Origin: an uncultured virus (IMG/VR IMGVR_UViG_3300025652_000050)
Lineage: Duplodnaviria; Heunggongvirae; Uroviricota; Caudoviricetes; Crassvirales
Strand: one strand, 5' to 3'
DNA length: 20,000 nt
IMG/VR virus record: IMGVR_UViG_3300025652_000050
The position numbers were made by a program, and so were the translations under genes. The notes beneath the pieces were generated by a model. The model saw only the letters and a program-made list of their open reading frames with translations. It was not told where the DNA came from and did no database searches. Shown in pieces: positions 3,697 to 20,000 of the stretch; the first letter of the stretch is position 1; each line of letters opens with the position of its first letter.

Positions 3697-3700
3697 AATT

Positions 3701-3964: not shown

Positions 3965-3976
3965 TCACGTTTTGGT

Positions 3977-4165: not shown

Positions 4166-4169
4166 AGAT

Positions 4170-4214
4170 TTGTGATACTTTAGGTTCGTACATACAAGAG
4201 TTGGCAGTAATTTT
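4170..4214 (+). other. attI-like / cassette-boundary core site (G|TTGGCAGTA)
   Basis: GTTGGCAGTA at 4200-4209 is the exact reverse complement of TACTGCCAAC at 5014-5023, but no attC hairpin precedes it. Confidence 0.5.
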
Positions 4215-4677
4215 ACCCAACATTGCGCGCCAATTGCAATTCGAGTTTTTTAATGTTTATCATTTGAGAAACTACATTGCAAATTGCGTTCGCTTGATTA
4301 ATGTAAGTTTTGTCTTTTTGTACTTTTTGAATAGTATCTAAAAGAATTACACTCAAATCATTTTCTTGTATTGCTACAATATTTTTTTTATTTTCTTCCA
4401 TTTTATTAGGGTTGAGTTCGTCTTTTTTCACTTGTATTGATACATTTTTTAATTCATTTTGTCTTTTTTCTAAAACTCCTTGTTTTAGTTTTACTCTTAC
4501 AGGAATTAAATTCTCAATAAATAAATCTATTTCGTTTTCAAAGAAATTATAAGTTTGCTTATCTGTAAAAACAATATAAGTAACTCCTACTTTTTTCCAT
4601 TTAGTTATAGTGATAATTTTATCCTTATAATTAAATTTCTTATCGATTAATAAATTTAGCTTTTGTTGCATCTTCAA
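4213..4677 (-). CDS. hypothetical protein (second gene of left cassette)
   Basis: 154-aa ORF; stop lies a few bases from the GTTGGCAG boundary; overlaps the upstream ORF. Confidence 0.7.
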   Translation of the reverse strand: MKMQQKLNLLIDKKFNYKDKIITITKWKKVGVTYIVFTDKQTYNFFENEIDLFIENLIPVRVKLKQGVLEKRQNELKNVSIQVKKDELNPNKMEENKKNIVAIQENDLSVILLDTIQKVQKDKTYINQANAICNVVSQMINIKKLELQLARNVG

Positions 4678-4921
4678 GTTGTTGTTTTAGCTCTAAATTC
4701 AAGTCATAAAGTTTTATAATCTCTATTGATAATTTCTTTATTTGCTCGTCTTTGGTTTCTTTTTCTTCATTCATCGCTCCGTAATATCGGGTGCAAACAG
4801 ATGTAGCAGTTCTTCCAGTTTTCAATGAAGCAATAAAAAACGCTTCTCTTAAATTATTAGGGTTTTTTAAAACCTCTTGTTTAATAATTTCTTCTTCTTC
4901 TGTGGTCCAATTTTTTGCCAT
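4640..4921 (-). CDS. Myb/SANT-like small protein with coiled-coil tail (first gene of left cassette)
   Basis: 'WTTEEEEII...GRTATSVCTRYY' resembles a Myb-like HTH. Confidence 0.6.
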   Translation of the reverse strand: MAKNWTTEEEEIIKQEVLKNPNNLREAFFIASLKTGRTATSVCTRYYGAMNEEKETKDEQIKKLSIEIIKLYDLNLELKQQLEDATKAKFINR

Positions 4922-4932
4922 AATATTATTTT

Positions 4933-5002
4933 TAGTAAAGTTTTCCTAAAGTGGTCGAATTTGACCACTTTAAATATTAAATAGTTAGTAAAATTTTCCT
5001 AA
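4933..5002. promoter_or_regulatory. operator-like palindrome flanked by direct repeats
   Basis: TAAAGTGGTCGAATTTGACCACTTTA (4947-4972), flanked by TAGTAAA(G/A)TTTTCCTAA at 4933 and 4986. Confidence 0.45.
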
Positions 5003-5016
5003 CATCAAAAAACTAC

Positions 5017-5147
5017 TGCCAACACGTGCTATAAGAAATAGCGGGTTCGGTGCTTTCTGAAAGTTCAGGTGTATTTTTAAAATCTGTCATAAATTTAAAG
5101 TTTAGTTTTTATTAATCCGCTACTTCTCATAGCACCATACGTTAGTA
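5017..5147 (+). repeat. attC-like hairpin (left site)
   Basis: TGCCAAC-AC-GTGCTATAAGAAATAGCGG ... CCGCTACTTCTCATAGCAC-CATAC-GTTAGTA; imperfect inverted repeat with AAC/GTT cores, in reverse orientation to the right-hand array. Confidence 0.8.
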
Positions 5148-5363: not shown

Positions 5364-5448
5364 AATATATTTAGTTTTATAATAACTGCTATATTTAATA
5401 GCTATTATTTAATTTCTCTTCTTTTTCCCTTGTAATACCATCTGTTAT

Positions 5449-7971: not shown

Positions 7972-7994
7972 AATAAGTATGTTTATTTTTTTTA

Positions 7995-8002
7995 CAAATA
8001 TA
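7995..8002 (-). promoter_or_regulatory. Bacteroidota -7 promoter element TATATTTG
   Basis: Matches TAnnTTTG on the - strand, about 24 nt upstream of the HTH gene start. Confidence 0.55.
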
Positions 8003-8052
8003 TAAATTAATTTTAATTAATTAATAAAAATTTATAAAAATAATTTAAAAAA

Positions 8053-8085
8053 AAAACTATGAGTATTAATAAGACCCATAGTTTT
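8053..8085 (-). terminator. terminator-like hairpin
   Basis: AAAACTATGAGT / ACCCATAGTTTT stem with an A run on the left (U tail on the - strand). Confidence 0.6.
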
Positions 8086-8113
8086 ATGTAGTTAAAAGTT
8101 TCTACTCTACAAA

Positions 8114-8830: not shown

Positions 8831-9269
8831 TTGTTCCTGTTTTTAAAGTTTTAATTTTTGTTTGTTTTTCTTCTGAAGTTAATCTTCTTGCATCAACACA
8901 AATACCTGTGTTATCAAAAGAATACATCATACCTGAAGCTTGGTCATCAACAAGGAATAGTTTTCCGTATTTTTGCTCTGACTTAAATTTAATAGACTCA
9001 ATTAAAATTGATGCTTGAGCTTTTGGTTCTTTTTCCAGAAGTTTAAATCTGTCCATTGCTTCTTTTTTCTGTTTAGCAAGTTCAGATAATTCAATACCAA
9101 TTTGAGAATATTCGTCTTTTCTCTCAGCTACTTCTTTTTCAGTAAGATTTTTTGTGTAGCTCGTCTCTTGTAATCCATAAGCAACTGCTTCTAAATTGTC
9201 TTGGATTTCTTTTTGAGACATTCCTTCAAATGCTTGATCATAATGTTGACCGATTTTAAATGCTTCCAT
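8823..9269 (-). CDS. conserved phage hypothetical protein, translationally coupled to the downstream gene
   Basis: 148-aa ORF with an 8-nt overlap with 8114..8830. Confidence 0.7.
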   Translation of the reverse strand: MEAFKIGQHYDQAFEGMSQKEIQDNLEAVAYGLQETSYTKNLTEKEVAERKDEYSQIGIELSELAKQKKEAMDRFKLLEKEPKAQASILIESIKFKSEQKYGKLFLVDDQASGMMYSFDNTGICVDARRLTSEEKQTKIKTLKTGTNE

Positions 9270-9314
9270 ATATTTGGTTTTTGGGTTTTATAAAGGTCGC
9301 CCAAACCTATTGAT

Positions 9315-9662
9315 TTAATTTTTAATTCTCATTGGTTCTAAAATAGCATCTACTATTGATTTTATAAACTCTTTTTTTTCAGATGGCACATGAATAGATA
9401 ATGTTTCAGATTCTCCTTCGTACATTTTTTTTCTACCAGATTTTGACTTAGGTTTGTTTTCTTTTTGATTTTTAATAAAAGTATCAATTGTTTTTTTTAA
9501 TTGTAAACATTCTTCAATACCAATTCCAACCTCTCCTAATCTTTGTTCATTGTTTTTAAATATTTCAAAATTTAAAACATCATCAATACCAGTAATTTTT
9601 AAACTATAGCACAATTCTTCTTTGTCTAATAATAAAATATCTATTTTTTTTTCTTTACTCAT
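9315..9662 (-). CDS. hypothetical protein with C-terminal RHH-like segment
   Basis: 'KSGRKKMYEGESETLSIHVP' basic / beta-strand motif. Confidence 0.55.
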   Translation of the reverse strand: MSKEKKIDILLLDKEELCYSLKITGIDDVLNFEIFKNNEQRLGEVGIGIEECLQLKKTIDTFIKNQKENKPKSKSGRKKMYEGESETLSIHVPSEKKEFIKSIVDAILEPMRIKN

Positions 9663-9663
9663 T

Positions 9664-10383
9664 TTATTGATTTTTAATTTTTTCTGCGAAATAAACCTGA
9701 CCTTTACCTGTTATTTTTGTAGTTCTTGTCGTGAAAGTTTCTGATCCGCTACCAATAGTTCTTGTGATAACTTCAAATAATCCAGAAGCAACATGATTTT
9801 GGTAAGGTTCATTATCTTTATTTAAAAATTTATTTTCTCTAAACCATTCAAAAAGTCTGTTTTGACCTATTTCAAAATCTTCATCGCATAAATCTTTTGC
9901 AAACTGTCTAACTAAAATAGAATTAGAACTACCAATTACACTTTCAGCGAATACAATTTTAGGTTTATCTTCTTCAATTTTATTATTAGCTTCTATTAAT
10001 AAGTTAGAAACACGTTCTTTCTCTATTAATAAAGCCATTTCAGACTGTAAAACTTCAAGATGTGTTCTTGGAACTATTTCTTTTAATTTTTTCTCACAAG
10101 CTATAAAATACTGTCTTGCTTCTTTTCCTTTATCACTTCTTTGAATCATGGAAATTTCTTTAGCAGTATCTAATGTTAAAACAAAGTCTTGAACTTCTTG
10201 ATTTGCAAGGGTGTTAAATACTTTACACCCATTATAATCTACTCCTTCTATGAATCCGTACTCTAATTGTCTATTCATCCAATTAGAAAATCTTTCAGTA
10301 GCACCTAAAAATTCATAAAGATTCCTAGCACTAACTAATTGTTGACCTTTTTCGTTTTCTGTAACTTTAATTAATTCTTTCAT
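9664..10383 (-). CDS. phage antirepressor (AntA/AntB N-terminal + KilA-C/ANT domain)
   Basis: 'VSARNLYEFLG...FSNW', 'AKEISMIQRSDKGKEARQYFI', 'KPKIVFA', 'IGQNRLFEWFR', 'TTKITGKGQVYF'. Confidence 0.92.
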   Translation of the reverse strand: MKELIKVTENEKGQQLVSARNLYEFLGATERFSNWMNRQLEYGFIEGVDYNGCKVFNTLANQEVQDFVLTLDTAKEISMIQRSDKGKEARQYFIACEKKLKEIVPRTHLEVLQSEMALLIEKERVSNLLIEANNKIEEDKPKIVFAESVIGSSNSILVRQFAKDLCDEDFEIGQNRLFEWFRENKFLNKDNEPYQNHVASGLFEVITRTIGSGSETFTTRTTKITGKGQVYFAEKIKNQ

Positions 10384-10405
10384 AAGTGTTTATTTTAAAT
10401 AATTA

Positions 10406-10413
10406 CAAATATA
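10406..10413 (-). promoter_or_regulatory. Bacteroidota -7 promoter element TATATTTG
   Basis: Matches TAnnTTTG about 23 nt upstream of the antirepressor ATG. Confidence 0.55.
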
Positions 10414-10456
10414 TTAATATTATATAATAAAACAATAAAAAATATAGAAAATTAAA

Positions 10457-10491
10457 AAAAGGTGAGTATTAATACATAATACTCACCTTTT
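10457..10491 (-). terminator. terminator-like hairpin
   Basis: Perfect 15-bp stem AAAAGGTGAGTATTA / TAATACTCACCTTTT with a 5-nt loop. Confidence 0.7.
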
Positions 10492-10523
10492 AAAAACATA
10501 AATAATTAAATATCAATTAGTTA

Positions 10524-10913
10524 CTAAAAAGGAAGGTTATCTTTATCCTCTTCATCTGTTGGAGCATAATCTGGCTTAAACTCTTGTGGATTATTATTCA
10601 TAGGGGGTGGATTAAACTGTGCTGCATCTTCTTGTTGTTTATCTGCAGGTTGTATTTTCCAACAAACCAAAGTGTTAAAATATTTATCTTCATTTTGGGG
10701 ATTTGTCCAAAGTTTTCCTCTGATATTTATACCACAAATAACCTCTTGCCCTTCAGTATAAGCATCAATTATATCTGTTTTGTCTCCATGGAGTTCTAAT
10801 TGAATGTTCTGTACATATTGCTCGTTTGTGGAAATTACAAATTCTCTCTTTTTAAAAGTGGCACCAATTTGTTGTTCTGGCTTTATAACTTTAATAGTTC
10901 CTCTAATTTCCAT
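10524..10913 (-). CDS. DUF3127-family single-stranded DNA-binding protein
   Basis: 'MEIRGTIKVI...FKKREFVI..NEQY.Q.I..E...YFNTL.CWKI' and acidic 'DNLPF' tail. Confidence 0.85.
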   Translation of the reverse strand: MEIRGTIKVIKPEQQIGATFKKREFVISTNEQYVQNIQLELHGDKTDIIDAYTEGQEVICGINIRGKLWTNPQNEDKYFNTLVCWKIQPADKQQEDAAQFNPPPMNNNPQEFKPDYAPTDEEDKDNLPF

Positions 10914-10915
10914 AA

Positions 10916-11305
10916 TTAATCTTGTATTAAATCGGTTAATGTTACTGCTTTAAATCCTTGAGGTTTCAAGATTTTTCCTTGTTCATTTCTAGTTACTTTC
11001 CCATCAGAACCAACTTTAGTCATGTTGTTTGAATGCACTCTGTTAAATGCTTCTGTAAAAATTGATTGAAGTCCATGTGCATTTATTGTTCCTAATAAAA
11101 TGTACATTTTATCTATACATGCATCTAAAATTTCAACTTTATCTTTTTGCATTGCAGCGTATATGTACTCTTCATTTTCTTCTTTCATTAAATCATATCT
11201 AAGATTTGATTCTTTGATATTAATAAGGCTTGGTTCTATGTTTACAGTTTGGTCTGTTGCTACTTGAAATTCAGCAACTAATTCTAATAATTCGTCTATT
11301 TGCAT
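10916..11305 (-). CDS. MazG-like / PRA-PH nucleoside triphosphate pyrophosphohydrolase
   Basis: 'LMKEENEEY', 'EILDACID..Y', 'VHSNNMTK', 'GKILKP'. Confidence 0.88.
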   Translation of the reverse strand: MQIDELLELVAEFQVATDQTVNIEPSLINIKESNLRYDLMKEENEEYIYAAMQKDKVEILDACIDKMYILLGTINAHGLQSIFTEAFNRVHSNNMTKVGSDGKVTRNEQGKILKPQGFKAVTLTDLIQD

Positions 11306-11307
11306 TT

Positions 11308-12216
11308 TTATTGAGTTTTGTTTAAGGTTATTGTTTTGTAGTATTCTAAAGCCATTGGGATTACATCTAAAATCTCTTGTTCAATAGTTTTGTCTCTTCT
11401 GGCCATGTAAGATTTTAGTCTTTCTTCTTTTGAATATTCTGGATTATCAGAATAAATAAGATTTCTTTTTACTTGATCGAAAAGAGGTTTTGCAATTTCT
11501 GAATCCATGTCAATAATTCCGTACTTGTTTTTTAGCTTCCAATTTTCTGCTTCAAGAATATGGTCAGGAGCGTCAGTAAGGCAATATTGTAAGTGAGCTT
11601 CATCAGCGTTGTAAAGCATCATATAAACTCTTAATTGTGTTTCGTACATACTTGAAAACTCTGCATTCATAAAGGTTTCAGCATCAAACGAACATTTTAC
11701 ATCTTTCACAACTTTAAGAGGGAATTTAGTTTCTCCATCTTCCATTAATTTTCTCCATTCCGGAAGTTCATCAACTGAATTATAGGTATGAATAATATCG
11801 GCTTCACCTGTTATGCTGCCAATTGTAATTCTCTCTTCGTTCTTTAAGAAAAACTGTTCTTCAATTTCTCCAATAAGTTCAATTCCATTTTCTTCATTAA
11901 ATAATCCCTTCATTACATACTTATTATCCAAGTTTTTAATGAATCCTTTTTCATTCTGTAACCAGATTTTTTGAACTTCTTTTTTTGCAGTAAGAGATAG
12001 TTCAGGTTTTGCATCTCTTTTTTCAATAAGTTTTTGAAGTTCATCAGCCTTATTATCGGTCCACTTAACTTTATTTCCATTCTTATTTAAACCGTTTTCC
12101 ATCTCATAGACTAATTCATCTATTCTGTCCAATTGAACATCAGTAATTGATGTATCTTTGTTTTTTACTAAAAGGTTTGCGAATGAACTCGCTCTGAATA
12201 CTATTTGTTTTTCCAT
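11308..12216 (-). CDS. PD-(D/E)XK exonuclease (lambda-exo/YqaJ-like), partner of RecT
   Basis: 'FRASS', 'KG...E', 'ITGEADI', 'DVKCS', 'YETQLRVYM'; adjacent to RecT. Confidence 0.8.
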   Translation of the reverse strand: MEKQIVFRASSFANLLVKNKDTSITDVQLDRIDELVYEMENGLNKNGNKVKWTDNKADELQKLIEKRDAKPELSLTAKKEVQKIWLQNEKGFIKNLDNKYVMKGLFNEENGIELIGEIEEQFFLKNEERITIGSITGEADIIHTYNSVDELPEWRKLMEDGETKFPLKVVKDVKCSFDAETFMNAEFSSMYETQLRVYMMLYNADEAHLQYCLTDAPDHILEAENWKLKNKYGIIDMDSEIAKPLFDQVKRNLIYSDNPEYSKEERLKSYMARRDKTIEQEILDVIPMALEYYKTITLNKTQ

Positions 12217-12227
12217 TTAATTAAATT

Positions 12228-12262
12228 TAAAAAATAGCGAGATTTTAAACGAACCTCGCTAT
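12228..12262 (-). terminator. terminator-like hairpin
   Basis: ATAGCGAG (12234-12241) / CTCGCTAT (12255-12262) with an A run on the left. Confidence 0.55.
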
Positions 12263-12273
12263 CTTAGTTACTA

Positions 12274-13257
12274 TTATTTTTTAGCTTTTAACTCTCTCTT
12301 GCGGTCATCAAAAATAATTATAAGTTCTTCGTCATCGTCGTCTATTCCTGGCAAGCATTTTTCAAGAGTTTCAATGTCTTTTGAATTTTCAATGTATTTA
12401 ATTATTCTATTTCTTTCTTTTAATTTTGAAACATCATTTACATTTGGTGTAACAGTTTCATTATCTACATATTCAGCATCAATATCAACTGTGTCTTCTT
12501 GAGTAAAGTTATCATTTTTGATTACTGCTTGGTCTGAAACAAGAGCTTTCTGAACAGAAGTAGACAAAGGTGCATCTTTTGATAGGTGAAGTTTAATAAC
12601 TGTCTTAGAAGCCATTTTATCAAACATATCTTTCCAAAGTCCTGTTCCAAATTTCTTGTAAGTTTGAGAGAAAGTTTTTGCATGTAATTCCACTTCGTCT
12701 TTAGTCATGTAAAATGTACTTTCAAATCCATTGACTAATTTGAAGTATGAAACATATCCAATAACAGGTTTTGAAATTCTCTCTTTGTCATTTTGAATCC
12801 AATTGAATTTAATTTCTCCTGTCATTCTATCAGTTGTTTCAATTTCTCCTTCTCTTACATCTGAATCATTCATTTTTAAAAACTGTCCAGAACGCATTGC
12901 TAACTGTTTCATTCCTTTAGCCGACAATTGAAACTGAACCATTGTTTTATAAGAACCATCAGATTGTCTTGTTTTAAATGGAACCAAAAATGCATGTCCT
13001 ATACTTGGATTAATTGGTAAATCTAAAGTAGCAGCCATTAAAGCAGCAGTATAAAGAGAATTTTGATCCGCACTTGCTAATTGTCCGTTTGAATTTACTA
13101 CAGATAAAATTGAAGTAACAAAAGATACTCCTTTTTCTTTATCGCCTAAAACCTCAGCGAATTTAGCTTTAATACTGTCTGAATTTAAAAAATTAGATAA
13201 TGCTTTTACTCCTATTATTGGAGTATTTTGATTTGAATTTGTAATTTCTGTACTCAT
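12274..13257 (-). CDS. recT: RecT-family single-strand annealing recombinase
   Basis: 'AATLDLPINPSIGHAFLVPF', 'QFQLSAKG..QLA.RSGQ', 'VIGY..YF.L.NGF', 'W...FDKMASKTV'. Confidence 0.92.
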   Translation of the reverse strand: MSTEITNSNQNTPIIGVKALSNFLNSDSIKAKFAEVLGDKEKGVSFVTSILSVVNSNGQLASADQNSLYTAALMAATLDLPINPSIGHAFLVPFKTRQSDGSYKTMVQFQLSAKGMKQLAMRSGQFLKMNDSDVREGEIETTDRMTGEIKFNWIQNDKERISKPVIGYVSYFKLVNGFESTFYMTKDEVELHAKTFSQTYKKFGTGLWKDMFDKMASKTVIKLHLSKDAPLSTSVQKALVSDQAVIKNDNFTQEDTVDIDAEYVDNETVTPNVNDVSKLKERNRIIKYIENSKDIETLEKCLPGIDDDDEELIIIFDDRKRELKAKK

Positions 13258-13260
13258 AAT

Positions 13261-13488
13261 TTATTGATTTTTAAGGTATTTTTGATAGTTTTCTTTAGAG
13301 ATTCTATGACTTCTTCCAATTTTGTTTCCAATTAGTTTTCCATCAGCAATGTGTTTTTGTACTGTATAGTAGTTTAGTCCTACTTTATCAGCTACTTCTT
13401 GAACAGTATAATAATCCTTTTCTTCTTTTTCAGATACTCGGATTTCAACTGACTCTCCTGGTTTAATGTGAATTACTCTTTTTGCCAT
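13261..13488 (-). CDS. excisionase-like (HTH_17/MerR-type) DNA-binding protein
   Basis: 'YYTVQEVADKVGL...TV...I..GKL.G.KIGR..RI'. Confidence 0.8.
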   Translation of the reverse strand: MAKRVIHIKPGESVEIRVSEKEEKDYYTVQEVADKVGLNYYTVQKHIADGKLIGNKIGRSHRISKENYQKYLKNQ

Positions 13489-14859
13489 TTAGTTTAAATA
13501 TTTTTCGATTAATTCATCAAGAATTATTTCATCTTGTTGTTGAAGCCAATTGGTTAATGCTTCTAATTTATCATTGTAGTTCATTGATGCTAATCTGTTT
13601 TTATTAGCTTCAATCATTCTGTCTACTTTGTGGTCTTTTAAAGGATCTCCTGAAACTTCAACTGTTTTTTTATTAATTAATATTGGAGTTTCGGAGTCTG
13701 GTTTTCCTGTAAAAGTATCAATTAAAACTCCTTCTTCATTTTCGATAAGTCTACCTGTTTCTTTAAATTCTACTTCCTGTACAGTATTATCAACCTTAAT
13801 AACATTTGCATCTATTTCTTCACCTTTAAAAATAGCTTTAAAACTATCTTCAATTGGTTGTTTTGAAATATCAAATTTTTCTATTTCTTGTGCTTTTTTC
13901 TTAGCTTCAAACTCAGCCTTTTCCTTTTGGAAAGCTTCTATTTTTAATCTGTTTTCCTCAGCAATAGCTTCATTTTTAATTGTTTGCTTATGCGTAATTT
14001 CTAAATGACCTATTGTTCTTTCAATTAAAGCTTGAATTTCTGCTCTTGCAATTGAATATGATTCTTGAAACTCTTGACAATCTAAAGCTAATTCTTCTGA
14101 AAATTCTTTCTGAATAGTTTTTGACTCTTCAAAAGTTAAAGTTGATAGCTTAGTCAACCAGGTGTTTTTCCAATTAGAAAACTTCTCTTTAATATCGAAT
14201 ACACGTTTCTGCTCTAACTGTTCAGCCTTGATACGTTCATTTTCCAAACGTTGCTCTTCTTGTTTTTGAATTTCACCGCATTTTTCATCAAAACTTGTTT
14301 GAACTCTATGCTTGGCCATCTCGAAAAGTTGTTGAAACTCCATGAAATCAAAATTAGAATCAAACATAAATCCTAATTGCTCTTTATTAGCCTTTACATT
14401 TTCAATGGTACTTCCTTTTACAATAGCATTACATTCATTCTCAAAGTTTACAATCTCTTCTCTAATCTTAGTAACTCTTTCTTCTTCTGCACGAAGTTTA
14501 GCTAAACGTTCTTGTTCCTTGATATCTTCATGTCGAGAAACTTCTTCCTGTTGCCTATTTTCTACATGAATAACATCTGCTATGATTTCAACATAAGCGT
14601 TCTTTACAGGTCCTAAAATAAACTCTTTAATTTTTTTGTTTACGGTTTTTTCCTCTGTCTGCAATTCTGTACGAATACTTCTCGCACCTGTTCTACTTTT
14701 TTTAGCTTCTTCATAAGTAGCATTATCAGTAATTGCTACATACTTAAACTCTTTTAATCTTTTTGCAACTTCTGCTTTTTTATTTTGAAGTTCTGGAAGT
14801 TGATTAATATCGAATTTGTCTAACTCGATTACCTGTAATTTGTTTTTTGATTTTTCCAT
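13489..14859 (-). CDS. coiled-coil phage protein (DUF1351-like N-terminus)
   Basis: Likely ATG at 14859 (MEKSK); 'ITDNATYEEAKKSR...RTELQ' and long E/K/Q heptads; upstream of RecT/exonuclease. Confidence 0.55.
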   Translation of the reverse strand: MEKSKNKLQVIELDKFDINQLPELQNKKAEVAKRLKEFKYVAITDNATYEEAKKSRTGARSIRTELQTEEKTVNKKIKEFILGPVKNAYVEIIADVIHVENRQQEEVSRHEDIKEQERLAKLRAEEERVTKIREEIVNFENECNAIVKGSTIENVKANKEQLGFMFDSNFDFMEFQQLFEMAKHRVQTSFDEKCGEIQKQEEQRLENERIKAEQLEQKRVFDIKEKFSNWKNTWLTKLSTLTFEESKTIQKEFSEELALDCQEFQESYSIARAEIQALIERTIGHLEITHKQTIKNEAIAEENRLKIEAFQKEKAEFEAKKKAQEIEKFDISKQPIEDSFKAIFKGEEIDANVIKVDNTVQEVEFKETGRLIENEEGVLIDTFTGKPDSETPILINKKTVEVSGDPLKDHKVDRMIEANKNRLASMNYNDKLEALTNWLQQQDEIILDELIEKYLN

Positions 14860-15047
14860 TTTTATAAATTTAATTAAATTAATGTGTAGCAAAGTAACTA
14901 ATATTAAATGAATATAGCAAATGTTATGTGTTATTTTTTTAAAAGTGTTATATTGTGTATAACTATCTGATAATCAATATCGGGTGTATTTCGGGAATTT
15001 TATACATATTATATATGTAAGGTGTTGGTATTTGGTAGTTTAAAGAT

Positions 15048-15080
15048 TTACTTTTTATTCGTTATAAGAATAAAAAGTAA
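15048..15080. repeat. perfect 13-bp inverted repeat with 7-bp spacer GTTATAA
   Basis: TTACTTTTTATTC-GTTATAA-GAATAAAAAGTAA. Confidence 0.7.
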
Positions 15081-15137
15081 TTTAGAATCTGTATAAATTA
15101 TAAAGATAAATATAGTAAAGTAGCTAATGTTAAATAA

Positions 15138-15153
15138 TAATTTTGTAGTTTTG
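15138..15153 (+). promoter_or_regulatory. tandem Bacteroidota -7 elements (TAATTTTG, TAGTTTTG); putative promoter for the cassette array
   Basis: Two TAnnTTTG matches immediately before the first hairpin, in the divergent intergenic region. Confidence 0.55.
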
Positions 15154-15166
15154 CTTTATAATTTAA

Positions 15167-15300
15167 AAATAACGTTTATCGGCTTTATTTCAGTGCCGTA
15201 ATTTAAAACTGAAGTTCACAAATAAAAACTAAACTTATGAATAGAGAAAACAATTCCAATAAATACCAAGCAAAGGCATTGAATAAAACCGATGTTATAA
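15167..15300 (-). repeat. attC-like hairpin 1
   Basis: AAATAAC-GTTT-ATCGGCTTTATTTCAGTGCC ... GGCATTGAATAAAACCGAT-GTTATAA. Confidence 0.8.
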
Positions 15301-15322
15301 GCCGTTTTTTTTTTTAAAAATT

Positions 15323-15697
15323 ATGGAAGTTACATATTATCAATTTTGTAAAACAATAGCCGAAGATTTTGGTATTGAATTAAATCAAAATCACAAAACT
15401 AAATTTAATCAATTCCCTATAAAAAATGGGAAAAGAAAAATAAACTCTTTTCACGATGCTACAATAGTAGACAAGCAAGGGAATGAATACCCTTATATGA
15501 TTAGTCAAACCGTTAGGAACGAAGAAAAACTAATTGATTTTGATTATATATATGTTATAAGACCAAAAAATCTAAATCAAATTATAGAAGAAACGGGTGT
15601 TGTTTTAAAATCAAACTCTTGTAAAATTTGTGAAGGCGGTGGTTGGTATAGTCAAGGAACAGAATACTTTTATAAAGGAATATCTTGTGAAGTATAG
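15323..15697 (+). CDS. cassette 1 hypothetical protein
   Basis: 124-aa ORF between hairpins 1 and 2; ends GTTATAAGCCGTTTT / AAAATGGATTATAAC. Confidence 0.75.
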   Translation: MEVTYYQFCKTIAEDFGIELNQNHKTKFNQFPIKNGKRKINSFHDATIVDKQGNEYPYMISQTVRNEEKLIDFDYIYVIRPKNLNQIIEETGVVLKSNSCKICEGGGWYSQGTEYFYKGISCEV

Positions 15698-15712
15698 TCG
15701 TCCTAAAATGGA

Positions 15713-15843
15713 TTATAACGGTCTCGCTGCTTTGCGAGGTTGCAAAATTCAAGACTAATAATTAAAATACAAACTAAACTTTAAATTTATGACTGATAAT
15801 AAAAATATTACTAATGTGCAATCTTGCAAAACAGCTGTTATGC
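15713..15843 (-). repeat. attC-like hairpin 2
   Basis: TTATAAC..GCTGCTTTGCGAGGTTGCA ... TGCAATCTTGCAAAACAGCT-GTTATGC. Confidence 0.85.
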
Positions 15844-16061
15844 CACGTAGTTTAACATTCGAAAATGGAGCAAAAGCACTTTTAATGGGTGAATTTGCAG
15901 AATATATTGAATTACCAAATGAAGAATATTGTGGTTGTGGAGAATGTGATTATTGTATAGAATTTCCAGATACAGAAGAAACTATTATTCATAAAGTGCC
16001 TATAAGTTGGGATTTAATAAAGGACATATACTCTCAGATTGTAGCTCACTATGGGGCATAA
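15789..16061 (+). CDS. cassette 2 protein, Cys-rich; resembles a segment of DUF551/Ea-type enterobacterial phage proteins; starts inside hairpin 2
   Basis: 'LTFENGAKALLMGEF...CGCGECDYC...VPISWDLIKDIY'; resemblance from memory. Confidence 0.65.
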   Translation: MTDNKNITNVQSCKTAVMPRSLTFENGAKALLMGEFAEYIELPNEEYCGCGECDYCIEFPDTEETIIHKVPISWDLIKDIYSQIVAHYGA

Positions 16062-16177
16062 CGTTTAGTATATGGCAAGTAGCCGACACATAAGTAAGTA
16101 CATAAAGAATAAATTATTAATTAAGCAAATAGTAAAAAAATAAGCCTAACAGCTATTTGCTATATACATTGTTAGGC
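16056..16177 (-). repeat. attC-like hairpin 3
   Basis: GCATAAC..GTATATGGCAAGTAGC ... GCTATTTGCTATATAC-ATT-GTTAGGC. Confidence 0.85.
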
Positions 16178-16188
16178 AACGTTTTATT

Positions 16189-16407
16189 ATGAAATACGAA
16201 ACTGAAATAAATGAAATTCTTAATACTGTACTTCCTAAAGAAAGTTGGATGACAGATGATGAACATAAAGAAATAATCGAAGAAACTTTTATGCAAATGG
16301 GGGTAAATAAGCAAAAACTTTCTGACGATATAGAAGTAGGTATAAAAAATGGATATACGGTTAAGCAACAAATTGAGTTATTGAAACGAGTTCTAAATGT
16401 TTCCTAA
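16189..16407 (+). CDS. cassette 3 hypothetical protein
   Basis: 72-aa ORF; stop overlaps the CCTAAC core. Confidence 0.75.
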   Translation: MKYETEINEILNTVLPKESWMTDDEHKEIIEETFMQMGVNKQKLSDDIEVGIKNGYTVKQQIELLKRVLNVS

Positions 16408-16538
16408 CGTTTGAGGCTTTGCGAGGATTTTCGGGAAGCACAAAAAGACTTTTCAAATTTAAAAATTAACTTAAAAAATACACAATGACTAAAAAATTAA
16501 ATACAGACACCGAAAATCTTGCAAAACCTTTGTTATAA
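16402..16538 (-). repeat. attC-like hairpin 4
   Basis: TCCTAAC..AGGCTTTGCGAGGATTTTCGG ... CCGAAAATCTTGCAAAACCT-TT-GTTATAA. Confidence 0.85.
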
Positions 16539-16565
16539 GCATACCACGAATTAAAAATTTATAAT

Positions 16566-16787
16566 ATGAAAAAAGTAATAATTATTGGTGCAAATACATT
16601 AATTGCAACTCAAATACTTGCAAATTCAGTACAAGAAAAAACTATTATTGTTGCACAAGAACAAAACAATCCTTTTGAAAGAGAGCCTATTAAAATAACA
16701 GCTACTTTACCTTTACCAAAATTGATAGACTGTTATGATAAAAAAGGTAAACTATTTGAACTACCTAAATCTAAATTCCATAAGTAG
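16566..16787 (+). CDS. cassette 4 hypothetical protein
   Basis: 73-aa ORF; ends GTTATAAGCA / TGCTTATAAC are perfectly complementary. Confidence 0.75.
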   Translation: MKKVIIIGANTLIATQILANSVQEKTIIVAQEQNNPFEREPIKITATLPLPKLIDCYDKKGKLFELPKSKFHK

Positions 16788-16799
16788 CTAAAAGGTTGC

Positions 16800-16893
16800 T
16801 TATAACGGTAGGTATATGGTTAGTGCGCCTACCATAAACTTTTAAATTAAGCACCGACCTTCATAGGCGCATTAACTATATACAATGTTGTGT
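16800..16893 (-). repeat. attC-like hairpin 5 (short)
   Basis: TTATAAC..GTATATGGTTAGTGCGCCTA ... TAGGCGCATTAACTATATAC-AAT-GTTGTGT. Confidence 0.85.
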
Positions 16894-16911
16894 GCCGTTA
16901 ATTTTAGAAAT

Positions 16912-17112
16912 ATGAAAACAGCGGTAACAGTAATACAAACAATCCAAACAGGGATGGATAATTACAAAGACTTGAAAAAAACAAAAGTGTTTGAAGATAA
17001 CACAACTTTGCTTGAAATAAAGCAATGGGCAAAAGAAGCTATGAACGTTAAAAAAATAGAAGTGAAAGATATTAGTTTAGGTTGCTTAGACTTTTCTGAT
17101 GTTGAGTCTTAA
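16912..17112 (+). CDS. cassette 5 hypothetical protein
   Basis: ORF-track 16885..17112; likelier start MKTAV at 16912. Confidence 0.7.
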   Translation: MKTAVTVIQTIQTGMDNYKDLKKTKVFEDNTTLLEIKQWAKEAMNVKKIEVKDISLGCLDFSDVES

Positions 17113-17116
17113 TGGC

Positions 17117-17254
17117 ACATAACGTTTGATGGCTTTGCGAGGATTTTCAGATTAGAGCAAACTAATTAATTGATTAATAACAAAATAAACCAAATACAAA
17201 ATGAATAAAAAAACAAATACAGAATCTGAAAATCTTGCAAAACCTTTGTTAACC
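17117..17254 (-). repeat. attC-like hairpin 6 (homolog of hairpin 4)
   Basis: ACATAAC..GGCTTTGCGAGGATTTTCAGATT ... AATCTGAAAATCTTGCAAAACC-TTT-GTTAACC. Confidence 0.85.
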
Positions 17255-17629
17255 ACTGTGTTTTTAGCACCGTATTTGCCTTACGGATTGAAAATAAAAT
17301 ATAGAGAACATATAGGTATTTTGCTTAAATTATGGCAAGATAAAGACACTCTGTACATAAACTGTATAAATGGAATAGGAACGTTTGTAAATCCAACATA
17401 CCCAAATGAATTTAAACCAATTTTAAAACCTATTTCAGATTTAACAAGACCTGAGTTAGAAGATGCGGAGTTTAGATATTATATTGATTATTTGACTTAC
17501 GAAAATCAAGGAGTAGAATGGACTTTAAGAGCTCCCTATGATATGATAGTTTACTTATTAAGTCAACATTATGATATTTACGGATTAATAGAAAAAGGTT
17601 TGGCAATATCTATCCACGATGTTGAGTAA
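17201..17629 (+). CDS. cassette 6 protein, conserved Bacteroidota-phage family ('LAPYLPYGLK...KPILKP.SDL...HYDIYGLIEKGLAI'); starts inside hairpin 6
   Basis: 142-aa ORF; family recognised from memory. Confidence 0.75.
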   Translation: MNKKTNTESENLAKPLLTTVFLAPYLPYGLKIKYREHIGILLKLWQDKDTLYINCINGIGTFVNPTYPNEFKPILKPISDLTRPELEDAEFRYYIDYLTYENQGVEWTLRAPYDMIVYLLSQHYDIYGLIEKGLAISIHDVE

Positions 17630-17635
17630 CATTGT

Positions 17636-17770
17636 GGTTAACGTTTTGCAGCTTGCGAAAGTGGCGTTTTTTAGTACCAAGCCTTTACAAATATACACTA
17701 ACTTTTAAATTTAAAAAATATGTTTATAGATACATCCTAAACTAGCCATTTTTGCAAACTGCTGTTGTGC
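17636..17770 (-). repeat. attC-like hairpin 7
   Basis: GGTTAAC..GCAGCTTGCGAAAGTGGC ... GCCATTTTTGCAAACTGC-T-GTTGTGC. Confidence 0.85.
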
Positions 17771-17785
17771 GTTCGGTTTTTATTA

Positions 17786-18211
17786 TTAAATTTTAGTATA
17801 AACTATAACTACACTAATAGACAAACCATTTCCTTCCCTTTGAAAGCTAGTGATTAATGAGTTGTTTGTTAATTCATCAATGTTTACTTTAAATATTGGT
17901 TCATCTAAACCAGGATCATCAAATACATAAGTTATTTTATTATTAGATAAAGAGTAGTCAGATGGGTCTAAATAACTAGTTGTTCCACATAAATAATGTT
18001 CATAGTATCTATTATCAGTTTTATACTCTTTATAAGTTCCTGTTGAGCAGTTGTCTAGATTCATAACTTCATTATTATTTTTAATAGAAACTATTTTCCA
18101 CTTTCCAATTAATAATGTTCCATCAATATTTTGATTTGAATCATCATTTTTTGAGCAAGAAGAGAAAGTAAGAATAAATAAAGAGAAAAGTAGTGTAATT
18201 AAATTTTTCAT
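17786..18211 (-). CDS. Bacteroidota-type lipoprotein with lipocalin-like domain (cassette 7, antisense to the rest of the array)
   Basis: Signal peptide plus lipobox 'FSSC-SKNDD', 'LIGKWKIVS' and beta-barrel pattern. Confidence 0.8.
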   Translation of the reverse strand: MKNLITLLFSLFILTFSSCSKNDDSNQNIDGTLLIGKWKIVSIKNNNEVMNLDNCSTGTYKEYKTDNRYYEHYLCGTTSYLDPSDYSLSNNKITYVFDDPGLDEPIFKVNIDELTNNSLITSFQREGNGLSISVVIVYTKI

Positions 18212-18353
18212 AGATAAAAGTTGTTTAAAATTGAATACAATATTAAAATAAAAAAAGATTAGAATTTTACGGTAAACCGTAAAGTGGTTAAAAAATAATT
18301 ATGTGGTTTAATATTCCTCCACAAAAAAGGAATTAAAATTAAAATTAAAAATC

Positions 18354-18539
18354 ATGTCAAAAACACAAAAAAACCAAGACAAAATAAACATTTCTGAACC
18401 AATAAAAGCTATTGAATCTCCTGAAACCATAAATAAAGCAATAGAAATACTTTCTATACTTAGAGGAAAAACAATAGATGAGTGTGTAAAAACTTTAGGA
18501 TTAGCAAGGGAATTACTTTTTACTAATTCTAATTTCTAG
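18354..18539 (+). CDS. cassette 7 small hypothetical protein
   Basis: 61-aa ORF with an A-rich upstream region. Confidence 0.6.
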   Translation: MSKTQKNQDKINISEPIKAIESPETINKAIEILSILRGKTIDECVKTLGLARELLFTNSNF

Positions 18540-18672
18540 ACATTATTATATTAAGTATTCTTTTTAATAGAGTATTATTACCTGCTATATCTCCTTTTAG
18601 CTCATCAATTTCGCCACGTAAAGATTGGATTTCTTCTCTTAGTCTTCTGATTTCGTTCTCTAATTCATTCAT
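18529..18672 (-). CDS. 47-aa coiled-coil peptide (MNELENEIRRLREEIQSLRGEIDELKGDIAGNNTLLKRILNIIMSRN)
   Basis: Manually translated; clear heptad pattern; converges on and overlaps 18354..18539. Confidence 0.5.
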   Translation of the reverse strand: MNELENEIRRLREEIQSLRGEIDELKGDIAGNNTLLKRILNIIMSRN

Positions 18673-18746
18673 AATTTAATTTTTTTATTTATGTTAATAT
18701 TTCAATTTTATTATTTCTTTCGATTTTTACGTTCCACGAAACTGAC

Positions 18747-18878
18747 GCACAACGTCTTGCGTCTTGGCGAGGTTGCTGAGTACGGAAAAATAAATTATCA
18801 ATTTTAAACAAAATATTATGCGAAACGTAAACGTGATTAAACCACAAAATCAGCAATCTTGCCAAAACGCTGTTATGA
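18747..18878 (-). repeat. attC-like hairpin 8
   Basis: GCACAAC..GCGTCTTGGCGAGGTTGCTGA ... TCAGCAATCTTGCCAAAACGC-T-GTTATGA. Confidence 0.85.
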
Positions 18879-19153
18879 CCAGTTATTACTTGGTTAGGTA
18901 TTCAGGCGGAAGCTATGATGATTATTATAGTGCGGTTATTTTTGTTACTAACAACAAAAAGACTGCGACTAAATATTGTACTAAATTCAATAAAACTTTA
19001 AAAAAGTGGAAAGACTATTATAAACAATTTGAAACTAAAAAATACGGAATAATAACTTGGATAAGAGATGAGTACATTGATACAAAATTTTACCGATGGA
19101 ATAAACTTCAAAAAATCAGCCGATGTTATTACGAAGTCGTTTCGGTCAGATAA
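18818..19153 (+). CDS. cassette 8 hypothetical protein; starts inside hairpin 8
   Basis: 111-aa ORF 'YYLVRYSGGSYDDYY..VIFVT'. Confidence 0.75.
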   Translation: MRNVNVIKPQNQQSCQNAVMTSYYLVRYSGGSYDDYYSAVIFVTNNKKTATKYCTKFNKTLKKWKDYYKQFETKKYGIITWIRDEYIDTKFYRWNKLQKISRCYYEVVSVR

Positions 19154-19157
19154 TTGG

Positions 19158-19278
19158 TCATAACGGTTTGTATATGAAACGTTGCAGACCGAAACTTAAT
19201 AGATAGACACAAAGAATTGAATTATTAATAAACTAAATAAAAGACCACTAAAGCAATGTTTTATATACGTTGTTATGT
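19158..19278 (-). repeat. attC-like hairpin 9
   Basis: TCATAAC..GTATATGAAACGTTGC ... GCAATGTTTTATATAC-GTT-GTTATGT. Confidence 0.85.
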
Positions 19279-19290
19279 GGCGTTTGAATT

Positions 19291-19494
19291 ATGACTAAAA
19301 AAGAATCAGCACTTAGAGAATTACGTAAATTAATGGATATACTAAAAACTTGGGGGAATTGCCTTGTACCTACATTATCTGACCAAAAAGAAACTTACGC
19401 ACAGGACAGGTTAAACCATTTTGCAAATTACCTTATAAATGAAGAAGGTATGACCATTGAACAGATAGATGCCGAAATATTAGCACTTGACTAA
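19291..19494 (+). CDS. cassette 9 hypothetical protein
   Basis: 67-aa ORF between hairpins 9 and 10. Confidence 0.75.
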   Translation: MTKKESALRELRKLMDILKTWGNCLVPTLSDQKETYAQDRLNHFANYLINEEGMTIEQIDAEILALD

Positions 19495-19498
19495 TGCC

Positions 19499-19630
19499 TC
19501 ATAACGTTTCTCGGCTTTGCTTTGTTGCGGAAAAGTATGCCGAAAGTTTAGATTTAAAAACAAAATTAACAAATACAAACCAAACATTGGTTAAGCACTA
19601 AACCGCAATAGAGCAAAACCGATGTTATAA
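19499..19630 (-). repeat. attC-like hairpin 10 (homolog of hairpin 1)
   Basis: TCATAAC..TCGGCTTTGCTTTGTTGCGG ... CCGCAATAGAGCAAAACCGA-T-GTTATAA. Confidence 0.85.
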
Positions 19631-19642
19631 GTAGCTTTTATT

Positions 19643-19852
19643 ATGACAAACGAATATTTACAACAAAAATTTGGAGAATTAATTTATGAATTAGGTGAAA
19701 TTAACTTCAACGCAATTACAGATGATTTTTGGCAAAAACATATAAATGAAAATCAAAACTTCAACGAAAAGCAATTAGAATGTTTAAGGCATTTTGCAGA
19801 AGATTTAATAAAACACGAACTAAAAGAAATAACTAAAAAATACATTAGGTAG
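19643..19852 (+). CDS. cassette 10 hypothetical protein
   Basis: 69-aa ORF between hairpins 10 and 11. Confidence 0.75.
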   Translation: MTNEYLQQKFGELIYELGEINFNAITDDFWQKHINENQNFNEKQLECLRHFAEDLIKHELKEITKKYIR

Positions 19853-19879
19853 CTTAACCGCAATGTTCTTTAAAGTTAC

Positions 19880-20000
19880 TTATAACGGTTTGTATATGAA
19901 ACGTTGCAGACCGAAACTTAATAGATAGACACAAAGAATTGAATTATTAATAAACTAAATAAAAGACCACTAAAGCAATGTTTTATATACGTTGTTATGT
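19880..20000 (-). repeat. attC-like hairpin 11 (identical to hairpin 9)
   Basis: 19882-20000 is identical to 19160-19278. Confidence 0.85.

Follow-up and report, generated by a model that had tools for sequence, protein, structure and literature searches.

The window (the whole 20,000-nt stretch of DNA that was analysed, which is phage-like) probably carries an array of mobile gene cassettes of an integron-like system common to Bacteroidota and their phages; the array starts at position 15171 and reaches at least to 20000 (Table 1). We hold the complete reading, in which an integron-like array, its anatomy, a recombinase mechanism and circular units are taken together, to be probable to the same degree. 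The system is a little-described integron variant, and the rule of complementary cassette ends is itself already textbook knowledge for integrons. Twelve hairpins were found in the window: 11 lie within the array, which runs off the window end, and one accompanies a lone cassette (5143-4200, minus strand). A covariance model (R1) scores these 12 sites at 43–115 bits, compared to 28 bits or less on the opposite strand; the model also recovered H0, which a simple detector missed at its threshold. No recombinase gene was found within the 20,000 nt. The AT-rich spacer ahead of the array is presumed to be an early promoter region, and a search of this spacer for an attI-like motif gave nothing above chance.

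Table 1. Hairpin sites (H), cassette bodies (C) and other features of the window. Outer pairs and gain refer to folding with cognate arms.
Feature	Coordinates	Strand	Arms	ORFs	Outer pairs	Gain (kcal/mol)	Remarks
Lone cassette body	4200..5023	-	5' 5023-5009 / cognate 3' 4214-4200	4921-4640; 4677-4213			
Lone hairpin	5021..5143	-					same family; inside replication module; R1 102.2 bits, in training set
AT-rich spacer	14893..15170	.					between divergent 467-aa gene and array; from ORF map and sequence
H0	15171..15296	+					first array site; AAC...GTT; R1 77.4 bits; folded
C1	15294..15719	+	15294-15308 / 15705-15719	15323-15697 (124 aa)	14	-8.0	
H1	15717..15839	+					R1 93.8 bits; fold -14.0 kcal/mol this strand, -11.5 opposite strand
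C2	15837..16062	+	15837-15851 / 16048-16062	15789/15840-16061	14	-10.8	
H2	16060..16173	+					TATATG/TATATAC type; R1 59.6 bits, outside training set; detector hit
C3	16171..16408	+	16171-16185 / 16394-16408	16189-16407 (72 aa)	13	-5.5	weakest gain of the ten
H3	16406..16534	+					R1 77.8 bits; folded
C4	16532..16806	+	16532-16546 / 16792-16806	16566-16787 (73 aa)	13	-9.9	
H4	16804..16889	+					short (86 nt), 20 uninterrupted pairs; R1 43.4 bits, outside training set; folded
C5	16887..17123	+	16887-16901 / 17109-17123	16885-17112 (75 aa)	15	-10.3	
H5	17121..17250	+					R1 77.8 bits; folded
C6	17248..17642	+	17248-17262 / 17628-17642	17201-17629 (142 aa)	14	-9.7	
H6	17640..17766	+					R1 92.7 bits; folded
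C7	17764..18753	+	17764-17778 / 18739-18753	reverse 17786-18211 (141 aa, lipocalin-like); forward 18354-18539	15	-12.7	about 1 kb, composite
H7	18751..18874	+					R1 104.2 bits; fold -17.9 kcal/mol this strand, -15.0 opposite strand
C8	18872..19164	+	18872-18886 / 19150-19164	18818/18875-19153 (111 aa)	15	-10.6	
H8	19162..19274	+					identical to H10; R1 54.4 bits
C9	19272..19505	+	19272-19286 / 19491-19505	19291-19494 (67 aa)	13	-7.9	start recurs after H10
H9	19503..19626	+					R1 115 bits; folded
C10	19624..19886	+	19624-19638 / 19872-19886	19643-19852 (69 aa)	15	-9.8	
H10	19884..19996	+					second copy of H8; R1 47.7 bits

All sites form long, imperfect hairpins with AACG...TGTT at their limits, and in the window the + strand folds best. 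In closed form, the site begins with a 15-bp outer stem; an asymmetric spacer follows, with 5 nt on the side of the AAC and 1-2 nt across from it, and then come an inner stem containing 1x1 mismatches and a loop. Extrahelical bulges are absent: across 277 hairpins, the arm opposite AAC has 3 single-base bulges versus 182 1x1 mismatches. Hairpins from outside the window were collected with our own detector, in which AACG...TGTT is obligatory and G.T is accepted as a pair on the strand under search. As for the cassette genes, the C1 ORF has no match in Pfam or PHROG, that of C6 matches phrog_10841 (unknown function; E 1.7e-17) and the reverse ORF of C7 matches Lipocalin_4 (E 4e-9); R1 found no hairpin in the C7 interior.

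The initial annotation stated that the sequence following each GTT pairs with that preceding the AAC of the next hairpin. All 20 of its quoted end strings (ten GTT, ten AAC) are present where it placed them, and 19 are unique in the window, with GTTATGCC having another copy at 887. The ten cognate pairs have a mean ungapped extension score of 10.1, compared to 4.6 for the 90 non-cognate pairs (best 9.0), and contiguous matching, starting at the G of GTT, averages 7.8 and 4.5 nt, respectively. The annotation had named cognate pairs no more complementary than random ones as the outcome that would overturn its claim: in both permutation tests, none of 100,000 re-pairings reaches the observed sum. 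In silico circularisation, the check that the annotation had suggested, gave the same picture. When the cognate arms are added to the hairpin core and folded (ViennaRNA, DNA parameters), they contribute a mean of -9.5 kcal/mol (-5.5 to -12.7) and form 13–15 outer pairs in ten of ten cases, versus -2.2 kcal/mol and 0–9 outer pairs (mean 4.7) for nine sites in their array context and -2.8 kcal/mol (best -9.2) for 90 shuffled pairings (Mann-Whitney p = 2e-7).

Pairing was further said to extend often to about 15 bp. This is exact for the ungapped extension in six of the ten cassettes (C1, C2, C5, C6, C8 and C10); it is shorter in C3 (14 nt), C9 (13 nt), C4 (10 nt) and C7 (9 nt). Other viral and bacterial loci supplied 104 non-redundant cassettes, in which cognate ends score 9.3 versus 4.2 for non-cognate ends and the extension is exactly 15 nt in 50; an 18-cassette chromosomal array obeys the same 15-nt rule. 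A position profile of 114 cassettes (window plus other loci) describes an outer stem of 15 bp, longer than the classical 7-bp R box as had been claimed, with a G.T at position 11. Watson-Crick pairing is 60–100% at positions 1–10, 1% at position 11 (where 75% of cassettes have G.T), 72–79% at positions 12–15 and 12–21%, which is background, from position 16 on. The proposed fingerprint of circular intermediates thus holds as far as sequence goes: in every unit one end is the partner of the other, and a crossover at the conserved AAC/GTT separates the two, the pattern to be expected if units recombine in closed circular form. The paired ends would accordingly mark swappable cassettes, a reading that the sequence supports in part, with the circles themselves deduced from the ends.

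A single hairpin motif recurs across 35 viral stretches and over 122 genome stretches, almost all carrying a Bacteroidota title; "viral" contigs over 100 kb may be bacterial fragments. Hairpins also match named phages of Flavobacterium, Cellulophaga and Tenacibaculum (24 records), and the same hairpin family fills arrays in both Flavobacteriia-type phages and Bacteroidota chromosomes. Methyltransferase cassettes occur in relatives of the window array. In bacterial loci, genes for Xer/IntI-like tyrosine recombinases adjoin the arrays. These proteins align end to end with XerA but with VchIntIA only in two stretches, skipping approximately 43 residues. Hairpins occur in 55 of the 80 best viral loci encoding an Xer-like recombinase, with 249 upstream on the recombinase strand versus 11 elsewhere: in these relatives the recombinase gene sits at the downstream end of the array, and a recurring motif, AAC followed by TAyTATATATA, precedes it. 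PF00589 has no match in three complete or near-complete related array-bearing phage genomes (G002, G003 and G006), while the match in a fourth, G005, is weak and far from its arrays. The literature searched yielded no experiment on this Xer-like family with these sites.

Could the array instead be a classical integron cassette cluster without an integrase (CALIN), with attC sites served by a true IntI from the host? The sites are attC-like in their AAC/GTT triplets, their imperfect hairpins of 86–130 nt, their cognate ends and their G:T-rich folding strand. CALINs have been reported in phages, and a classical integrase may act on such sites, since IntI1 recombined one predicted Polaribacter phage site in E. 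coli in the account given in PMC9892861; that phage has at least one hairpin of the window family (39123-39244), which may or may not be the published site. We nevertheless consider this unlikely. The array-side recombinases are all without the IntI insertion and score 185–209 bits against TIGR02249, below the cut-off of 265; bulges are absent opposite AAC; and the outer stem measures 15 bp rather than 7. Moreover, IntegronFinder surveys, as presented in 10.1101/2022.02.28.482270, list for Bacteroidetes only In0 elements and one complete integron. For the first two of these reasons, the suggestion that each unit once formed a complete attC does not stand in its classical sense.

The two strands of the hairpins are not equivalent. 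Of 221 distinct hairpins, 163 are more stable as the AACG-to-TGTT strand and 54 less so (four ties), and G.T counts are 411 on this strand versus 62 on the other, an asymmetry somewhat inflated by a detector that sets the strand by AACG/TGTT and allows G.T. This mirrors the G:T excess described for attC bottom strands (PMC5027507). In phages this folding strand also carries the genes, and a hairpin therefore precedes its gene. An alternative is that the hairpins and end pairing act in RNA rather than as DNA recombination sites, helping to process or terminate a polycistronic early transcript or to control its translation: the phage hairpins are on the coding strand, RNA would tolerate G.U, the right arm runs into a T-rich stretch after position 15, and several loops contain an ATG in frame with the next ORF. 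The asymmetry, however, persists in bacterial arrays (better in 57 hairpins, worse in 22), where the folding strand is antisense to the genes (31 cassettes antisense, 7 sense) and is therefore not in the mRNA. A role in RNA also leaves the repeat and homology boundaries at AAC/GTT and the association with a recombinase unexplained, and no Rfam family was matched by the hairpins, making this explanation very improbable.

Cassette boundaries argue for site-specific exchange at the AAC/GTT triplets. The H8 repeat is identical to 19884-20000 over 117 nt, starting 2 nt left of AAC, a left boundary that supports crossover there; the copy of C9 following H10 is represented by its first 7 nt, where the window ends. 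C8 is 83.5% identical to G002 11789-11487, with similarity running from 8 nt before GTT to 2 nt after AAC. Eight of nine homologous cassette pairs resemble each other more in the upstream core than in the downstream one (6 of 7 independent families, with 1 tie), and in phages a hairpin and the gene downstream of it tend to move together. Because of this, and in agreement with the H8/H10 boundary, it is most likely the upstream core that completes the circle's site, judging from these comparisons, and not the downstream core as in integrons read along the gene. For the C8 pair itself, core identity is 0.72 upstream and 0.62 downstream against an upstream-core background of 0.60-0.74, and neither flanking core is clearly co-inherited.

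Shuffling by homologous recombination between repeated intergenic elements, with no dedicated site-specific enzyme, would resemble the PeSL cassettes of T4-type phages. The early region is plastic, and repeated elements do lie between its small accessory genes; the window phage encodes RecT and an exonuclease, and PeSL-mediated mini-circles are on record (PMC2839356, PMC4122927, as far as these describe them). Homologous exchange predicts neither complementary unit ends nor a fixed 15-bp stem with G.T at position 11, neighbouring cores are often dissimilar (one has 0.48-0.74 identity to the window cores), and the H8/H10 repeat begins exactly at AAC. We regard this explanation as highly unlikely; the complementary ends and boundaries at an invariant triplet, unlike PeSLs, indicate a site-specific enzyme.

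The lone cassette in the replication module supports the paired-ends reading from outside the array. Its hairpin scores 16/16 with the detector, its arms have one non-Watson-Crick position, the G.T at position 11, and no hairpin follows the 3' end of its body. Among 636 GTT-started 15-mers from both strands of positions 1-15000, an inverted partner within 4 kb and with at most one substitution exists only for the lone-cassette pair, which was recovered from both strands. That the cores are mobile miniature elements inserting into palindromic targets between genes is the least credible proposal: one hairpin family does span many unrelated phages and bacteria, with one member alone in the replication module, but insertion predicts pairing between the flanks of a single hairpin, whereas in-array flanks form far fewer outer pairs than cognate arms and the right arm of the lone hairpin pairs 809 nt downstream rather than with its own left flank.

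For the cassette array we propose an enzyme of the Xer/IntI branch of tyrosine recombinases that has no integron-integrase insertion. It would cleave the folded strand at its 5' AAC and exchange strands between two sites. The unit, a hairpin core plus the gene that follows it, would be excised as a circle and could re-enter another site or an attI-like site beside the recombinase gene. We infer that the enzyme acting on the window array would be supplied by the phage or by its host.

Classical integrons (IntI, attI and attC, including sedentary chromosomal ones) share many of these features: AAC/GTT bounds, imperfect hairpins, sites that exist only in closed form, a better-folding G:T-rich strand, arrays, cassette duplication and, in relatives of the window array, a recombinase at one array end. 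As described in PMC2674596, integron cassette ends reconstitute the site, and a cassette's own site exists only in the closed form; according to PMC5027507, the better-folding strand has more G:T, and its 5'-AAC-3' is the proposed place of cleavage. The differences lie in the outer stem with its fixed G.T, in place of a 7-bp R box; in the spacer and the missing bulges; in recombinases without the IntI insertion; and, in phages, in genes on the folding strand, a hairpin before the gene and a recombinase downstream of the array.

Qi et al. 2023 (PMC9892861) describe phage CALINs, likewise integrase-free groups of attC-like sites in the genomes of virulent phages; one such phage infects the flavobacterium Polaribacter and has methyltransferase cassettes. 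That report gives 17 clusters of at least 2 predicted sites each, found with classical attC models and interpreted as ordinary integron parts; the portions of the report consulted do not mention arrays of 10 or more sites, the 15-bp rule, the inverted gene orientation or an Xer-like recombinase. The rAID-1 clusters of Bacteroidales (Ross et al. 2019, 10.1101/471110; PMC12247911) resemble, in their layout, Flavobacterium loci that hold homologues of the Xer-like recombinase. A homologue occurs in 52 of 121 genomes of the order of a Bacteroides-labelled genome, where this layout recurs and the arrays obey the 15-nt cognate rule. The rAID-1 clusters differ in being chromosomal and in holding immunity genes, and their descriptions, in the available parts of both sources, are without hairpin anatomy, cognate ends, circles or phage arrays. 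Finally, PeSLs are also stem-loop repeats flanking small accessory genes in plastic regions, with mini-circles as proposed intermediates; they differ as promoter/terminator composites that, in the accounts of PMC2839356 and PMC4122927, are thought to recombine by homology.

The ends of each array cassette (C1-C10, the bodies between successive hairpins H0-H10) are complementary to each other, as the initial annotation had proposed, and every end string it quoted for the ten cassettes was found in its place. The contiguous match averages 7.8 nt between cognate ends (the two ends of one cassette) versus 4.5 nt between non-cognate ends, the corresponding mean extension scores are 10.1 and 4.6, and none of 100,000 permutations reached the observed cognate sum. 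When each cassette was closed in silico and folded with DNA energy parameters, a check suggested in the same annotation, the cognate arms added -9.5 kcal/mol, compared with gains of -2.2 kcal/mol for the in-array sites and -2.8 kcal/mol for 90 shuffled pairings (p = 2e-7). Cognate arms form 13-15 outer pairs in all ten cassettes; in-array flanks form 0-9. The pairing of about 15 bp that had been described is exactly 15 nt without gaps in six of the ten cassettes, and 14, 13, 10 and 9 nt in the others. The outer (R) box is thus completed by the ends of one cassette and not by the two flanks of one in-array site. Such complementarity is sequence-level proof that these small phage genes are mobile units, separate from one another and with exact limits, and not ordinary members of an operon. 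The further reading of the ends as a fingerprint of circular intermediates is partly supported: it stands in so far as the sites mark integron-like, site-specific cassettes, but no circle was observed, and the sites differ from classical attC.

The outer stem was profiled over 114 cassettes, including those bounded by hairpins of the same kind collected at other loci. Positions 1-10 are Watson-Crick paired in 60-100% of cassettes, position 11 in 1% (it is G.T in 75%) and positions 12-15 in 72-79%; from position 16, pairing falls to a background of 12-21%. This profile defines the outer stem as a 15-bp element, twice the length of the classical R box. Next to the 15-nt right arm there is a T-rich run (positions 16-20, with T in 52-88 of the 114 cassettes at each position), and no complementary A-run lies opposite it on the other arm. 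Within the hairpins, five unpaired bases separate AAC from the inner stem in 189 of 277 cases, and one or two unpaired bases precede GTT in 212 of 277. Interruptions of the inner stem in these 277 folded hairpins are mainly symmetric: there are 182 1x1 mismatches, and one-base bulges number 11 on the AAC arm and three on the opposite arm. AACG and TGTT do not vary among the ten aligned window hairpins, nor do AAC and TGTT among the full set of 63, and compensatory changes occur at 13 of 19 consensus pairs. A search of the hairpins against Rfam returned no family, the sole match being S15 at chance level.

A covariance model trained on 63 hairpins, of which the window contributed eight, finds exactly 12 sites in the window. 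Eleven belong to the array and score 43-115 bits (four of these were outside the training set); on the opposite strand, scores are 28 bits or less. The twelfth is a lone hairpin in the phage gene region, followed by a 15-nt arm whose partner lies downstream of it (see table). The only position in this arm pair that is not Watson-Crick is a G.T at position 11, and among the 636 15-mers that start with GTT in window positions 1-15000 this arm alone has such a partner. The pair therefore marks an eleventh cassette that obeys the rule, outside the region covered by the initial annotation. No hairpin follows its 3' arm, and the cassette apparently sits at a secondary site.

Coordinates of features in the window
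Feature	Coordinates (nt)	Strand	Remarks
724-aa open frame	2-2176		runs off the window start
Phage genes	1-14892	mostly minus
Lone hairpin site	5014-5150	minus	found with the covariance model
Lone cassette, arm after hairpin	5023-5009	minus
Lone cassette, partner arm	4214-4200	minus	809 nt downstream of the first arm
AT-rich stretch upstream of array	14995-15020		resembles the attI-like motif, 3 mismatches
Small ORFs with long hairpins between them	15171 to window end	plus
ATG in loop of H0	15238
ATG in loop of H1	15789
ATG in loop of H3	16486
ATG in loop of H5	17201
ATG in loop of H7	18818
C7	17764-18753		about 1 kb; reverse lipocalin-like gene and forward 61-aa ORF, no hairpin between
Reverse gene of C7	17786-18211	minus	lipocalin-like
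Duplicated stretch (H8 and start of C9)	19162-19278 and 19884-20000		exact recurrence after C10

A repeat and homologous cassettes point to the boundaries of the mobile unit. H8 and H10 are identical: the identity begins 2 nt to the left of AAC and extends for 117 nt to the window end, taking in the first 7 nt of C9; to its left stand the ends of C8 and C10, which are not alike. This exact recurrence indicates that a cassette is duplicated in the array and that its second copy runs off the window. Between C8 and its homologue in the related phage G002, identity is 83.5% over a stretch that begins 8 nt before GTT and stops 2 nt after AAC; this pair is uninformative as to which hairpin travels with the gene. 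For nine pairs of homologous cassettes taken from different arrays, similarity is greater in the upstream hairpin core in eight cases, with one tie (six of seven when independent families are counted). To judge from these boundaries and from the similarity of the upstream cores, the unit appears to consist of a hairpin core and the body after it, with the cut at the 5' AAC. According to the available text of PMC5027507, this is also where the folded bottom strand is cleaved by classical integrases.

The hairpins have a preferred strand. Of 221 distinct hairpins, 163 are more stable on the strand that reads from AACG to TGTT (the folding strand); on that strand, G.T pairs have G on the 5' arm in 411 cases versus 62 reversed, and mismatches are CxA in 149 cases versus 10 AxC, the size of the asymmetry being somewhat inflated because the hairpin detector is biased towards G.T on the strand that it scans. 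For hairpins of bacterial arrays, folding is better on the AACG-to-TGTT strand in 57 cases and worse in 22. As the asymmetry is also present in bacterial arrays, where the folding strand is antisense to the genes (31 cassettes antisense, seven sense), it places selection on folding at the DNA level. At viral loci, in contrast, 41 cassettes are sense to the folding strand and none is antisense; in the window, seven are sense, none is antisense, two are ambiguous and one has no long ORF. Phage cassettes are packaged the opposite way round from host cassettes.

The reverse gene of C7 matches Lipocalin_4 (E 4e-9) and encodes a hydrophobic N-terminus. In five hairpins an ATG lies behind an A-rich stretch in the loop (see table). 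In C2, C6 and C8 the loop ATG shares its frame with the cassette ORF, and C2 and C8 have a second in-frame ATG within GTTATG. From the loop ATGs of H0 and H3, frames of approximately 17-26 codons run to a stop at or just past GTT.

The window has a G+C content of 28%. Its phage gene region encodes NinG, a DnaB helicase, a DnaD-like loader, an antirepressor, an exonuclease, RecT and an HTH_17 protein, and the nearest relative of the DnaB is that of Cellulophaga phage phi39:1 (41% identity). The 724-aa frame at the window start has no Pfam match, and its PHROG matches are all weak and fall to giant families whose function is unknown. The nearest record, G001, has only window positions 1-4000 in common with it and lacks an array, and megablast of both window halves against named phages gave no match. 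The array packs 11 sites into 4.8 kb; no tyrosine recombinase is encoded within the window, and the downstream side of the array, which is the recombinase side in relatives, lies beyond it. A divergent 467-aa gene was considered as a hidden recombinase and dropped: it has no Pfam match, no function is assigned to its PHROGs, and the atlas places it beside unnamed viral clusters, among them one with DUF1351. No backbone protein of the window is common to more than seven array-bearing loci, so no window-encoded partner emerges.

One hairpin motif was located in 35 viral stretches and in more than 122 genome stretches; Bacteroidota titles account for nearly all of the latter. Separately, hairpins match 24 records of named Flavobacterium, Cellulophaga and Tenacibaculum phages, and Polaribacter phage P12002L has one clear hairpin of the window's family, adjoining a methyltransferase gene. 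At four of the 13 bacterial loci with at least three hairpins, a tyrosine recombinase lies at the gene-upstream end of the array. The best family for the array recombinase is a XerA/integron-integrase model. On the integron integrase model TIGR02249, these recombinases score 185-209 bits (cut-off 265). The protein aligns with XerA over its whole length and with VchIntIA in two stretches, skipping approximately 43 residues that correspond to the integron-specific insertion region. Of 121 genomes in the order to which a Bacteroides-labelled genome belongs, 52 have a homologue; a genus-level search around that genome covered 10 small genomes and gave one good match, on a short contig. Arrays lie beside the homologues in the expected orientation in six of 10 regions examined, and one such array of 18 cassettes obeys the same 15-nt rule.

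Relatives of the recombinase are encoded in at least 586 viral stretches. Among the best 80 viral loci, 55 have hairpins, of which 249 lie upstream on the same strand and 11 elsewhere. The viral recombinase gene encodes a median of 267 aa; the motif AAC|TAyTATATATA often lies 5' of it and is a candidate attI-like site. In the window, from which the array runs off, this motif has eight matches versus 5.1 expected, which is not above chance; the same applies to the AT-rich stretch upstream of the array. No tyrosine recombinase was found in three complete or near-complete related array-bearing phage genomes.

Related arrays of some animal-associated genera contain genes for aminoglycoside- and lincosamide-modifying enzymes. 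In records of Riemerella, Empedobacter, Myroides, Bergeyella and Kaistella (L061, L076, L089, L100 and L050), hairpins flank or neighbour genes whose domains are of the APH phosphotransferase, LinB-like nucleotidyltransferase and ABC-F types; in Empedobacter they adjoin the Xer-like recombinase. Several other loci show unusual arrangements. At L038:133-1527, a single frame that starts inside a hairpin joins the N-terminus of a C5-methylase to the C-terminus of a recombinase, which may reflect a fusion, a frameshift or faulty assembly. Just 5' of the recombinase gene in L351 (about 7925-8004) and L348 is a unit of approximately 29 nt with pairing ends and no ORF, apparently an empty mini-cassette. 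The chromosomal locus L305 (G045:C1:528000-546000) has 19 nearly identical 67-nt hairpins beside a recombinase, with two sites of approximately 120 nt interspersed among them; the homogeneity of these hairpins resembles that of sites in sedentary chromosomal integrons.

We lean, with some reserve, towards the reading that a second version of the integron operates in Bacteroidota and their phages. In it, a short Xer-like recombinase without the IntI insertion would read a folded site built of a 15-bp outer stem with G.T at position 11 and a 5/1 spacer, free of extrahelical bases. Phages would own complete platforms (array, then attI-like site, then recombinase) in which each gene lies on the folding strand behind its own hairpin, and would thereby keep early or counter-defence genes in a pool of their own, packaged in inverted orientation. 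The window would contain one of these arrays and, in the replication module, a further cassette inserted at a secondary site. If this is true, gene capture by recombination of folded DNA is not confined to the IntI-type integrons of Proteobacteria, and has shaped the accessory genomes of Flavobacteriia-type phages and Bacteroidota chromosomes; the defined grammar of the site would also allow cassettes to be found and delimited automatically in phage metagenomes.

Our literature search found no paper on this hairpin anatomy or its phage form. Phage CALINs, runs of two or more attC sites with no integrase close by, are on record with at least two predicted sites each (PMC9892861, available text), and IntegronFinder surveys report almost nothing in Bacteroidetes, as far as the available portion of 10.1101/2022.02.28.482270 extends. 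The rAID-1 clusters (recombinase-associated acquired interbacterial defence), in the accessible part of 10.1101/471110, consist of a XerD-like recombinase at least 44% identical to a B. fragilis reference followed by at least two co-directional low-GC genes; the recombinase-array layout in the order of the Bacteroides-labelled genome matches the description of these clusters. The PeSL repeats of T4-type phages, as characterized in the partial source available, are composite early promoters and stem-loop terminators that recombine by homology, whereas the window units have mutually complementary ends and a repeat boundary at AAC.

By the standard definition, the site of an integron cassette exists only in the circular form (PMC2674596, available text), so the principle behind the initial annotation is not new. 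As in integrons, the sites are imperfect hairpins bounded by 5'-AAC and GTT-3' triplets, the R box is restored by the two ends of one cassette, and one strand folds better and is richer in G:T. Unlike attC, as described in the available text of PMC5027507, sites of the window's family have no extrahelical bases opposite AAC, and their asymmetry lies in a 5-nt versus a 1-2-nt spacer. The outer stem is 15 bp with G.T at position 11 rather than an R box of approximately 7 bp (RYYYAAC/GTTRRRY), and the recombinase of relatives lacks the IntI-specific insertion. Finally, integron genes lie opposite the folding strand with attC after the gene, whereas the phage genes lie on the folding strand, and the position of the recombinase in phages differs as well.
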